IMG/VR virus record: IMGVR_UViG_3300001282_000006
DNA from: a virus
Taxonomy: Duplodnaviria; Heunggongvirae; Uroviricota; Caudoviricetes
DNA: 43,871 nt
Reading direction: 5' to 3' (one strand)
The position numbers and the translations under genes were made by a program. A model generated the notes under the pieces. It worked only from the letters and a program-made list of their open reading frames with translations, did not search any database and was not told the origin of the DNA. Positions 8,169-32,098 of the stretch are shown piece after piece (within the stretch, counting starts at the first letter, position 1; every line of letters begins with the position of its first letter).

Positions 8169-8245
8169 ATATTTTTATTATTTTTGTAAAAAAATATCAA
8201 AAGAGATAAAAACTTTTTAATATATACACATACAATAAAATATAT

Positions 8246-8317
8246 TGCGGGGTAGAGCAGGGGTAGCTCGCTAGGCTCATAACCTAGAGGTCGGAGGTTC
8301 GAATCCTTCCCCCGCTA
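8246..8317 (+). tRNA. tRNA-fMet (CAT)
   Basis: Cloverleaf; anticodon arm ctagg-ctCATaa-cctag; mismatched 1:72 pair. Confidence 0.9.
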
Positions 8318-8335
8318 CTAAAAAAATAAAAAATA

Positions 8336-8367
8336 TTTGGTGAATTGAAATTGTCACCGTATATTTG
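8336..8367 (+). promoter_or_regulatory. Bacteroidota-type primary-sigma promoter for leader 1
   Basis: TTTG (8336) - 20 nt - TATATTTG (8360). Confidence 0.75.
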
Positions 8368-8400
8368 TAAAAGAATTAAAAACTATAAAAAACTAAAACA

Positions 8401-8478
8401 ATGACAACAATTACTAACATAGCGTATTATTATGAGGGAGAGCGTGGCTCAAACGTCAGACTAATGTCTATGTCGTAA
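8401..8478 (+). CDS. Leader peptide 1, MTTITNIAYYYEGERGSNVRLMSMS (Tyr/Glu sensor)
   Basis: 25-codon ORF between promoter and terminator; TAT TAT TAT GAG GGA GAG; GTCAGACT (8455-8462) complementary to the terminator 5' arm. Confidence 0.8.
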   Translation: MTTITNIAYYYEGERGSNVRLMSMS

Positions 8479-8500
8479 TGGAATCATTATGATATTAACT

Positions 8501-8532
8501 AACCCAGTCTGACTTATCAGACTGGGTTTTTT
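8501..8532 (+). terminator. Intrinsic terminator of attenuator 1
   Basis: aacccagtctga-ctta-tcagactgggtt followed by a T run. Confidence 0.9.
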
Positions 8533-8547
8533 GTTTTAAATTAAATT

Positions 8548-8638
8548 GGGAGTGTAACGTCAGCGGCATGTAAGCCGCCCCTCGTAAATATATGGCGTAT
8601 GGCTTGAGGTAACTAGTGTTCGAATCCTGGTACTCCCA
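8548..8638 (+). ncRNA. Atypical tRNA-like gene (no D arm, GTA in a 6-nt loop)
   Basis: Acceptor gggagtg/tactccc, GTTCGAATC T loop, hairpin gcggc-atGTAa-gccgc, long extra arm. Confidence 0.55.
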
Positions 8639-8644
8639 CAAAAT

Positions 8645-8716
8645 GGTCCTGTCGACTAATGGTCAGGTCAACACCCTTTCAAGGTGTAGATGCGGGTTCG
8701 ATCCCCGTCGGGACTA
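8645..8716 (+). tRNA. tRNA-Glu (TTC)
   Basis: Cloverleaf; acacc-ctTTCaa-ggtgt. Confidence 0.92.
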
Positions 8717-8723
8717 CAAATAT

Positions 8724-8806
8724 GGGAATGATGTGACACAGGTAGTCACGCTAGTCTGTAAAACTAGTGCCTTCGGGCGTTGCGAGTTCGAGTCTCGCCA
8801 TTCCCA
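8724..8806 (+). tRNA. tRNA-Tyr (GTA)
   Basis: ctagt-ctGTAaa-actag; long variable arm. Confidence 0.92.
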
Positions 8807-8824
8807 CAAAAAAATTAACAAATG

Positions 8825-8855
8825 TTTGGATAATTAAAAAATATCCTTATCTTTG
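8825..8855 (+). promoter_or_regulatory. Bacteroidota-type promoter for the second Glu/Tyr pair
   Basis: TTTG (8825) ... TATCTTTG (8848). Confidence 0.75.
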
Positions 8856-8871: not shown

Positions 8872-8943
8872 GGTCCGTTAGTGAAGCGGTTAACACGCTG
8901 CCCTTTCACGGCAGAGGCACGGGTTCGAATCCCGTACGGACTA
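8872..8943 (+). tRNA. tRNA-Glu (TTC)
   Basis: ctgcc-ctTTCac-ggcag. Confidence 0.93.
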
Positions 8944-8949
8944 CAATAT

Positions 8950-9032
8950 TGGAAGGTGGGTGAGTGGTTAAAACCGACAGACTGTAAATCTGTTCTCGCA
9001 AGAGTACGGGGGTTCGAATCCCTCCCTTCCAA
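8950..9032 (+). tRNA. tRNA-Tyr (GTA)
   Basis: acaga-ctGTAaa-tctgt; long variable arm. Confidence 0.93.
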
Positions 9033-9098
9033 CAAAAATTAAAAATAACTAAAAAGGGAGTTAAAACTTTTTATATATACATTAATATAATTAAAACG

Positions 9099-9243: not shown

Positions 9244-9333
9244 TGGCGAATAGCAGTGGTGTCTTATACACACTATACCTGTAGCGGTAACTTGAGATAG
9301 TATCAAACGTGGGTTCGAATCCCACTTCGCCAA
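9244..9333 (+). tRNA. Atypical tRNA-Ile-like gene (TAT), no canonical D arm
   Basis: Acceptor tggcgaa/ttcgcca; perfect T arm gtggg-ttcgaat-cccac; ggtgt-ctTATac-acact. Confidence 0.6.
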
Positions 9334-9341
9334 CAAAAATT

Positions 9342-9917: not shown

Positions 9918-10286
9918 ATGAAAATATGTCCTAATTGTGAAAAGGTTGTTACCAAAAGAAATAACAAATACTGCGATGCTAAGTGTCAAGTAGAATTTGT
10001 AAATAAAGGTATCTATGAGAACATAGAAAATGGAGACACAACTCTTTATCATAAGACATATAAAAGACATCTTATCATCAAATATGGTGAAAAATGTATG
10101 GAATGTGGTTGGGATAAAGTAAATCCATCAACAGGTAAAGTTCCAATACAATTAGAACATATAGATGGTAACTCGGATAATAATTCTTTAGATAATTTGA
10201 AATTACTTTGTCCAAATTGTCATTCACTAACACCAACATATGGTGCTTTGAATAAAGGAAATGGACGAAAGAATAGAAAAAGATAA
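9918..10286 (+). mobile_element. Free-standing HNH homing-endonuclease-like gene inside a tRNA cluster
   Basis: CPNC..YCDAKC zinc finger, CMECG, LEHIDGNSDNNSLDNLKLLCPNCH. Confidence 0.85.
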
Positions 10287-21840: not shown

Positions 21841-21911
21841 AAATTAAAACTTTTATCTATATTTGTATAAAATAAGTCAAAAGGAACAAAAAACTTTTAA
21901 TATATACTATA
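21841..21911 (+). promoter_or_regulatory. Dual-promoter cassette (TATATTTG plus TAATATATA) upstream of leader 5
   Basis: Near-identical to 31739-31810. Confidence 0.75.
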
Positions 21912-22098: not shown

Positions 22099-22183
22099 CG
22101 GTAGGTACCCGAGCGGTCTTCAGGGACTAGTCTGATACACTAGGTGAGAAATCACAACGTGGGTTCAAATCCCACCCTACCGA
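22099..22183 (+). tRNA. tRNA-Ile (GAT) with long variable arm
   Basis: ctagt-ctGATac-actag; V arm gtga-gaaa-tcac. Confidence 0.8.
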
Positions 22184-22189
22184 CAAAAT

Positions 22190-22436: not shown

Positions 22437-22522
22437 TGATGGGTGTCCTGAGCGGCGAAAGGACCTGGCTGTTAACCAGACGACATTAAAGTCCACCGTG
22501 GGTTCGAGTCCCACCTCATCAG
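22437..22522 (+). tRNA. tRNA-Asn (GTT) with long variable region
   Basis: ctgg-ctGTTaa-ccag; 17-nt variable region; G73. Confidence 0.78.
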
Positions 22523-22528
22523 CAAGAT

Positions 22529-22681: not shown

Positions 22682-22686
22682 CAAAT

Positions 22687-22769
22687 GGTACTGTGGCCGA
22701 GTGGTGTCGAAAGACGAGAGGCACAGATCTGCAAAATCTGTCACACTGGTTCGAGCCCAGTCAGTACCT
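22687..22769 (+). tRNA. tRNA-Cys (GCA) with D-loop hairpin insertion
   Basis: cagat-ctGCAaa-atctg; U73; gtc-gaaa-gac in the D loop. Confidence 0.88.
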
Positions 22770-22774
22770 CAAAC

Positions 22775-22846: not shown

Positions 22847-22851
22847 CAAAT

Positions 22852-22997
22852 CAGTAGGACCCTATATTAGGTGGTAACTTCTAGAGAAGCCACATAAAGA
22901 ACTGGTCCGGGTTAAAAACCAAACTTGATTATTTGATATTCTAGAAAATGTCATTTAGTTCGGATTGGGAAGGTGGGTTCGATTCCCACCCTACTGT
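22852..22997 (+). ncRNA. 146-nt tRNA-like RNA (acceptor and T arm enclosing a large structured insert)
   Basis: cagtagg (22852) pairs with cctactg (22990); perfect T arm gtggg-ttcgatt-cccac; several internal hairpins. Confidence 0.6.
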
Positions 22998-23003
22998 CAA
23001 AAT

Positions 23004-23200: not shown

Positions 23201-23284
23201 GCCGATGTGGCTCAGTGGCGACAGCACTGGTTTTGTAAACCAGAGACGAATAGTCCAACGGGGGTTCGAGTCCCTCCATCGGCT
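23201..23284 (+). tRNA. tRNA-Thr (TGT) with long variable region
   Basis: ctggt-ttTGTaa-accag; variable region agacgaatagtccaac. Confidence 0.82.
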
Positions 23285-23299
23285 CAAAATAAATCACCT

Positions 23300-23414: not shown

Positions 23415-23501
23415 CGCGGGGTAGAGTAGAGGTCAAACTCACTGGGCTCATAACCCAGGGTTGCGCAAGTGACACGTCAGGTTCGAATCCTGCCCCCGCT
23501 A
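23415..23501 (+). tRNA. Initiator-type tRNA-Met (CAT) with long variable arm
   Basis: C1 mismatch; ctggg-ctCATaa-cccag (3 GC pairs); V arm gttgc-gcaa-gtgac. Confidence 0.8.
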
Positions 23502-31732: not shown

Positions 31733-31810
31733 TTTGACAAATTAAAACTTTGTTGTATATTTGTATAAAATAAGAACAAAAGGAAGAAATCCTTTTTAAT
31801 ATATACTGAA
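31733..31810 (+). promoter_or_regulatory. Dual-promoter cassette upstream of leader 3
   Basis: TTTG (31733), TATATTTG (31756), TAATATATA (31798). Confidence 0.78.
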
Positions 31811-31981: not shown

Positions 31982-32055
31982 CGGGTAGTGACTAAGGTTT
32001 TAAGCACGGGGGCTCTGGAGGCTTCAGTTAGTCGGTTCGATTCCGACCTACCCGA
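31982..32055 (+). tRNA. Atypical tRNA, anticodon CTG (Gln) or TGG (Pro) depending on register
   Basis: Perfect acceptor cgggtag/ctacccg and T arm; anticodon region ggggg-ctctggag-gcttc. Confidence 0.6.
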
Positions 32056-32098
32056 CAAAATACTCTTTAGAGAATAGAGTAAAAGAATTCTCAAATAC

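Follow-up and report, generated by a model that had tools for sequence, protein, structure and literature searches.

A likely ribosome-mediated leader-peptide attenuator in front of tRNA genes of a huge phage

A locus lying directly upstream of tRNA genes for Glu and Tyr in a huge phage with Bacteroidota-type hosts, referred to hereafter as Att1, is most probably a ribosome-mediated leader-peptide transcription attenuator of the phage's own tRNA genes; no expression, ribosome or termination data are available for it. Att1 would be an attenuator of the classical ribosome-mediated kind whose cargo, tRNA genes, is new; we consider this reading likely, and it is experimentally untested. What can be shown is the anatomy of the locus, its alternative folds (in silico), its conservation, and the fact that leader content tracks cargo in related units. 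The window, i.e. the whole stretch of 43,871 nt that was analysed (IMG/VR record IMGVR_UViG_3300001282_000006), is AT-rich (30.5% G+C) and contains at least 32 tRNA genes as called by ARAGORN; its relatives are IMG/VR contigs of 344-519 kb. The features of Att1 and of the region behind it are the following:

8336-8367, + strand: Bacteroidota-type promoter, with the -33 box TTTG at 8336-8339, the -7 box TATATTTG at 8360-8367 and an N20 spacer
8401-8478, + strand: leader ORF of 25 codons plus TAA, encoding MTTITNIAYYYEGERGSNVRLMSMS; its translation is inferred
8425-8442, + strand: sensor codons TAT TAT TAT GAG GGA GAG (Tyr9-11, Glu12, Gly13, Glu14)
8455-8462, + strand: region 2, the 5' strand of the antiterminator, GTCAGACT, within codons 19-21 and pairing with 8506-8513
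8470-8495, + strand: stop-codon hairpin of 11 pairs (-9.5 kcal/mol), which holds the TAA and is enclosed by the antiterminator
8501-8528 (hairpin) and 8527-8537 (T-run), + strand: intrinsic terminator, region 3 being its 5' arm and region 4 its 3' arm
8548-8638, + strand: tRNA-like unit, the first RNA past the gate, with an acceptor-like stem, a T-arm-like stem and an extra hairpin
8645-8717, + strand: tRNA-Glu (TTC), called by ARAGORN and by Rfam RF00005 (61.9 bits); gated cargo
8724-8807, + strand: tRNA-Tyr (GTA), called by ARAGORN and by Rfam RF00005 (32.8 bits); gated cargo
8825-8855, + strand: second host-type promoter, identified by the promoter pattern
8872-8944, + strand: second tRNA-Glu (TTC), called by ARAGORN and Rfam
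8950-9033, + strand: second tRNA-Tyr (GTA), called by ARAGORN and Rfam

The TTTG / TAnnTTTG consensus is that of Bacteroidota sigma-A promoters, and the pattern TTTG-N18-20-TAnnTTTG is found in 10 copies in the window for 1.4 expected. At Att1, transcription is inferred to start near position 8374. The leader ORF begins 34 nt past the -7 box, and the region on its 5' side is A-rich and unpaired upon folding. No Shine-Dalgarno sequence precedes the ORF, and its translation is therefore only inferred; absence of a Shine-Dalgarno is usual in Bacteroidota. The sensor comprises three Tyr and two Glu codons, GAG being the rarer of the Glu codons in the window (17% of Glu codons), and the Gly codon at position 13 (GGA) is not matched by any tRNA behind the Att1 gate. 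Region 2 is located 15 nt past the first base of the last sensor codon, and its sequence GTCAGACT is exactly complementary to AGTCTGAC (8506-8513). The terminator hairpin is made up of 12 pairs, six of which are G-C, and a loop of 4 nt (-19.1 kcal/mol), and is followed by TTTTTTGTTTT. Only 19 nt separate the T-run from the first RNA gene, the tRNA-like unit, which leaves too little room for a promoter, so that there is none between the terminator and this unit. The first-pass annotation had read codons 9-14 as the Tyr/Glu run given above and had described 8455-8462 and 8506-8513 as a perfect 8-bp complement. Both claims held, as did all of its sequence statements on Att1 (codons, complement, terminator and tRNAs) when the letters were read again.

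In silico, the full-length Att1 transcript folds into the terminator (z -4.7). For RNA ending before the 3' arm, the MFE structure of the nascent RNA contains the helix between 8455-8462 and 8506-8513, formed around the 8470-8495 hairpin. The antiterminator domain reaches -23.3 kcal/mol, compared with -19.1 kcal/mol for the terminator hairpin. At equilibrium the terminated fold is the more stable one, so that the model rests on kinetics, and this kinetic competition is inferred. When a ribosome footprint was masked at the Tyr codons (8413-8446), the antiterminator helix remained intact in the predicted fold; when the footprint was masked at the stop codon (8461-8491), which puts the ribosome between the two antiterminator strands, the hairpin was lost together with two of the eight helix pairs. 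These masked folds, computed only in silico, support the earlier claim that a ribosome stalled at Tyr9-11 leaves the antiterminator exposed. The attenuator reading of the first-pass annotation is itself supported, given that the structural requirements are present and rightly placed; function has not been shown experimentally. In silico, the antiterminator forms even when no ribosome is present; a possible 1:2 fold (8417-8473, -14.9 kcal/mol, z -1.08), for its part, is indistinguishable from shuffles. Because of these two points, an untranslated leader would be expected to read through, unlike that of trp. The stop-codon hairpin could possibly serve as a pause or nucleation element, its pause role being inferred.

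Chance estimates for Att1 on its own are of mixed strength. In random 24-mers with the amino-acid composition of this phage, at least five out of six consecutive residues belong to the set {E,Y} with p=0.0014, and YYY appears with p=0.0033. E plus Y content across the whole Att1 leader is not above chance (p=0.13). An exact complement of at least 7 nt to a terminator arm occurs in shuffled leaders with p=0.011 (Att1 only), and the best leader-terminator duplex found by RNAduplex, at -13.1 kcal/mol, is marginal against shuffles (p=0.05). Taken alone, Att1 is thus merely suggestive, and it is the context, i.e. orthologs and related units, that makes the case strong.

Close orthologs of Att1 were found in three records (G002, c3300015608 and G004). 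A pattern for the tRNA-like unit recovered only G002 and G004, and a terminator pattern gave one more; a search for related loci using the 237-aa neighbour gene returned nothing, and the nearest record (G001) is a 55-kb fragment stopping short of the Att1 region. Both promoter boxes are invariant among the four orthologs, the spacer being variable, and the ATG, TATTATTAT GAG and the terminator are likewise invariant across the alignment. In G002, c3300015608 and G004 alike, the ORF has the same ATG and frame and runs for 25-26 codons, and YYYE is kept in all three. The peptide tail diverges (SNVRLMSMS vs PSIRQVLFVL in G004). In G004, a G-to-A change at 8455 occurs together with a C-to-T change at 8513, so that the antiterminator pair is compensated; since C8513 sits in the terminator loop, this pair matters only for the antiterminator. 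The stop-codon hairpin is kept in all four orthologs and includes one compensatory pair (C-G to U-A), seen in G004. In a more distant relative (G003), a single leader (MNTLIYIGYIAEGGYEAG.. / MNTLIYIGYIAEGGYEAGSF..) precedes a merged tRNA array, the order of which is Glu, Glu, Glu(CTC), Tyr, Tyr, three Gly, Ile(TAT) and two Ala, and the residues of that leader are Y, I, G, E and A. G003 thus combines Att1 and Att2 in one unit, in leader and cargo alike.

Units of the same kind were collected with a pipeline relying on position only, which required an ATG ORF of 12-50 codons ending near a terminator, with tRNAs then following. It returned five units in the window, Att1 being one of them, and 36 across nine related huge phages. 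Leaders and cargo correspond to each other in, for example, KIGGGAGA ahead of Gly and Ala tRNAs, NLNMNMNTLTVVNNTLCIR ahead of Ile, Arg, Asn, Leu, Val, Thr and Met tRNAs, PQPQ..DQDPD ahead of Asp and Pro tRNAs, QYQQQQ ahead of Gln tRNAs, HKHF..KWF ahead of Phe, His and Trp tRNAs, SKSSSSRSS ahead of Arg and Ser tRNAs, and KKKKK ahead of five Lys tRNAs. When leader-cluster assignments were shuffled inside each genome, the true pairing was the single best of 120, 5040, 720, 5040 and 120 permutations in the five genomes, respectively. Residues matching the cargo account for 40% of the leader before region 2 and for 13% from region 2 onward (Fisher p=7e-18). Over the 36 units, the distance from the last sensor codon to region 2 has a median of 12 nt (IQR 10-15; 15 in Att1). 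About 12 nt is also the distance from the A site to the leading edge of the ribosome, as known from the size of ribosome-profiling footprints. In the nascent MFE structure, the leader tail is paired to the 5' arm of the terminator in 31 of the 36 units, the full-length MFE structure forms the whole terminator in 35 of them, and the leader sequences are entirely different between paralogous units.

Three units of the Att1 design are also present in a cultured phage, Cellulophaga phage phi4:1 (NC_021788; L050 4124-4248, 5084-5222 and 6830-6979), each behind a host-type promoter. One of them has a leader, MKTNYCTYNNSNWSFSY.., and an 8-bp region 2, ACAGGATC, ahead of Tyr, Ser, Asn, Trp and Phe tRNAs; one phi4:1 unit is annotated as hypothetical protein gp075, and the NC_021788 annotation does not call the units attenuators. 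The phi4:1 units resemble Att1 in the promoter, the ORF listing the cargo, the 8-bp region 2, the stop-codon hairpin and the terminator, whereas they differ in belonging to an unrelated phage lineage (146 kb) and in having different leader sequences and cargo groupings. Under the same pipeline, the T5 tRNA region yielded no leader-terminator-tRNA unit; small ORFs are present there without attenuators. Not every tRNA-rich phage, therefore, has the design.

A further motif, CTTTTWATATATAC, occurs in four copies in the window (8214-8227, 9067-9080, 21894-21907 and 31793-31806) where 0.22 would be expected. All four are situated a short distance 5' of a tRNA unit or leader (tRNA-Met, Att2, Att3 and Att4), often behind a host-type promoter, and Att1 is without the motif. 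The motif could conceivably be a phage-specific promoter, for which it is a candidate.

The cargo of Att1 consists of the tRNA-like RNA, tRNA-Glu and tRNA-Tyr, and not of genes for amino-acid biosynthesis or aminoacyl-tRNA synthetases. The RF00005 cut-off is 29 bits, and tRNA-Tyr is barely above it. The unit at 8548-8638 is conserved in four phages; its consensus fold includes one compensatory pair in the T-arm-like stem, lacks a D-arm, and has a loop that varies and is 6-8 nt long, compared with 7 nt for a canonical anticodon loop. No ARAGORN call and no RF00005 match, even at E<=10, was obtained for this unit as a tRNA. The GTA-containing loop reads ATGTAA, GTGTAA, AATGTAAG and ATGTTAGA in the four phages and is not conserved. 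The description of this unit in the first-pass annotation as a GTA-loop tRNA-like unit thus held in part: the unit is real and conserved, but it is not a canonical tRNA and the GTA is not conserved. As a separate matter, 8548-8638 was considered as a candidate canonical tRNA or Tyr tRNA and rejected, on the grounds that neither ARAGORN nor RF00005 calls it and that its fold is without a D-arm.

The implied gating of the Glu and Tyr tRNAs needs correction as well, given that a second Glu/Tyr pair equipped with a promoter lies downstream (8872-9033). No terminator is found between Att1 and this pair, and, as inferred from the sequence alone, it could be reached both by read-through of Att1 and from its own promoter at 8825-8855. 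Since the second pair has its own promoter, the gate would add to a basal supply and not be the sole source of Glu and Tyr tRNAs. On the upstream side, no terminator intervenes between tRNA-Met(CAT) at 8246-8318 and Att1, so that transcripts coming through tRNA-Met would also be gated.

As side observations, tRNA-Met(CAT) at 8246-8318 is located directly behind a motif of the CTTTTWATATATAC type, with neither leader nor terminator in front, and it is the closest match to the Cellulophaga phage tRNA-Met (88% identity). Moreover, conserved tRNA-shaped, non-canonical units (8548-8638, 9244-9334 and 31984-32058) are the first RNA after three of five terminators. All three have acceptor-like and T-arm-like stems, "anticodon" loops of 6-8 nt and no clear D-arm, and ARAGORN gives them two-letter anticodons or no call. 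Such units past terminators might be processing handles or decoys, which is no more than a possibility.

In the mechanism that we propose, leader translation, stalling, fold kinetics, the pause role of the hairpin, the physiological trigger and the response to charged-tRNA supply are all inferred. Transcripts would start at the promoter at 8336-8367 or arrive from upstream via tRNA-Met, and the leader ORF (8401-8478) would be translated, with the stop-codon hairpin perhaps holding the polymerase back for the ribosome to catch up. With abundant Tyr-tRNA and Glu-tRNA, the ribosome would cover region 2, reach the stop codon at 8476 and melt the stop-codon hairpin; the terminator (8501-8528) would then form and RNA polymerase would halt at the T-run. 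Slow decoding of TAT or GAG would instead stall the ribosome at codons 9-14 with its front edge short of 8455, region 2 would pair with 8506-8513 once the latter is made, and the terminator would be blocked. Transcription would then proceed through the tRNA-like unit to tRNA-Glu and tRNA-Tyr and on to the second Glu/Tyr pair. The predicted outcome is negative feedback on the supply of precisely those tRNAs whose decoding is probed by the leader. That attenuators can react to the dosage of a tRNA gene is known from pheR, a single tRNA-Phe gene whose loss derepresses pheA 6- to 7-fold (PMC3082878).

Other readings of the locus can be envisaged. The closest one keeps the same mechanism and takes the signal to be starvation for amino acids (Tyr/Glu), tRNA output being adjusted, for example, to tune the load of uncharged tRNA. 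In its favour, a stalled ribosome reports charged tRNA, so that low amino acid and low tRNA cannot be distinguished, and classical leaders respond to both signals (PMC3082878). However, under amino-acid starvation extra tRNA would give no relief, which would leave the codon-cargo match in 36 units without obvious benefit, whereas feedback on tRNA abundance explains the match between leader and cargo directly; we therefore regard the starvation reading as unlikely. Still less credible is the view that the terminator is a constitutive leaky stop or insulator, with the short ORF and the complementarity being coincidental. It can draw on the weakness, when taken alone, of the whole-leader composition (p=0.13) and duplex energy (p=0.05) of Att1, and on the T5 tRNA regions, which have small ORFs without attenuators. 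Against it stand the conserved promoter directly before the leader and the lack of one past the terminator, the YYYE clustering (p=0.0014), the ortholog conservation with compensatory changes, the best-possible permutation pairing in five genomes, and the uniform spacing between sensor and region 2.

A trans-acting factor binding the leader RNA, either a tRNA as in T-boxes or a protein of the TRAP/PyrR type, could also be invoked in place of a translating ribosome, considering that the antiterminator forms in silico without a ribosome and that another factor could then disrupt it. Yet there is no match to a T-box or other Rfam leader family, and in-frame ORF content tracks up to eight cargo amino acids and not one specifier; a single RNA-binding factor would account poorly for ORF amino-acid content that follows the cargo, and this reading seems very improbable. 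Equally hard to sustain is the idea that the actual product is the terminated leader RNA (about 160 nt) or its peptide of 25 residues, acting in trans like rnTrpL of Sinorhizobium. There are indeed sRNAs that derive from attenuators and function in trans (PMC6614838), but the peptide tail and the loops diverge in the orthologs, where only the sensor codons and the pairings are kept, and paralogous leader sequences are wholly different, so that a role in trans would at most be additional to the cis role.

The preferred reading, attenuation by a translating ribosome responding to tRNA supply, can be extended to a bolder and merely possible one, in which the leaders perform surveillance of the tRNA pool for the phage and act as a sensor-coupled counter-defence rather than a constitutive supply of tRNAs. 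In such a scheme, a defence nuclease, or infection itself, would deplete given tRNAs, ribosomes would stall on the matching leader, and the phage would reply within seconds by transcribing replacements for exactly the depleted tRNA species. tRNA-Tyr is a known target of retron-Eco7 PtuAB (PMC11555353).

As an attenuator, Att1 is like thrL, ilvL, trpL, hisL and pheL in having a short leader, clustered regulatory codons, an antiterminator and a terminator that exclude each other, a T-run and, as inferred for Att1, control exerted by the position of the ribosome (for the pheL scheme, see PMC3082878). Multivalent leaders are known in enterobacteria, namely thrL (Thr and Ile) and ilvL of ilvGMEDA (Ile, Leu and Val). 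In contrast to the enterobacterial leaders, the cargo of Att1 is tRNA genes and not biosynthetic enzymes; Att1 is encoded by a phage, has a Bacteroidota-type promoter and no Shine-Dalgarno, and carries a stop-codon hairpin inside the antiterminator in the absence of a convincing 1:2 anti-antiterminator. In E. coli, the pheM leader attenuates pheST, encoding phenylalanyl-tRNA synthetase. pheM-pheST resembles Att1 in that its target is a part of the translation machinery serving the amino acid being sensed; however, it concerns a synthetase protein gene, a single amino acid and a cellular genome, whereas Att1 would regulate the tRNAs themselves, so that the feedback would act directly on the molecule being sensed. 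In T-box riboswitches, tRNA status is likewise linked to terminator read-through via an antiterminator, but these riboswitches bind uncharged tRNA directly, without translation, and possess a conserved T-box sequence and a specifier loop, whereas Att1 would sense two amino acids through an ORF. Rfam gave no match to a leader family or to the T-box model, whether at the gathering score (whole window) or at E<=10 (8380-8660), and the only sub-threshold Rfam matches (NsiR1, trpB motif and L10 leader) were driven by the terminator. The literature searched, which did not cover old subscription journals, contained no account of leader peptides attenuating tRNA genes or acting in the tRNA arrays of phages.

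The purpose of phage tRNA genes has been argued for decades. The roles under debate include codon compensation, substitution for host tRNAs that have been degraded, and evasion of anticodon nucleases (PMC10264068, PMC11555353). If the reading of Att1 is true, phage tRNA supply would be regulated by demand, species by species, and each tRNA block would carry a readable label of its purpose. Attenuation, known for amino-acid biosynthesis and one synthetase operon, would then extend to tRNA genes and to viruses, and the Att1 design would represent a compact natural sensor of tRNA availability. The presence of the design in the cultured phage phi4:1 provides a laboratory system in which a direct test is feasible.

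Some other features of the window deserve mention. Four tRNAs of 85-87 nt with a long variable arm, for Ile(GAT), Asn(GTT), Thr(TGT) and Met(CAT), are located at 22099-22184, 22437-22523, 23201-23285 and 23416-23500, respectively; Ile, Asn, Thr and Met normally use short-arm tRNAs. Relatives also have a long-arm Glu(TTC) tRNA (L018 1888-1974). Inside the big tRNA array, two stretches (22685-22770 and 22850-23000) have acceptor and T-arm ends and no ARAGORN or Rfam call, one of the two being about 150 nt in size with a large insert. Directly past two gated tRNA-Gln genes, a 534-aa ORF (32644-34248), sharing 70-98% identity in nine huge-phage contigs, has a HIGH-like motif (..PNGYLHIGHAK..) at its start. 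The encoded protein resembles a class-I glutaminyl-tRNA synthetase, as inferred from this motif and without a family scan. Finally, a 122-aa ORF (9918-10286) lying between tRNA-Gly(GCC) and tRNA-Ala(GGC) contains an HNH-like motif (HIDGNSDNN..LCPNCH), recognized by eye only, and is reminiscent of the homing endonucleases of the T5 tRNA region.
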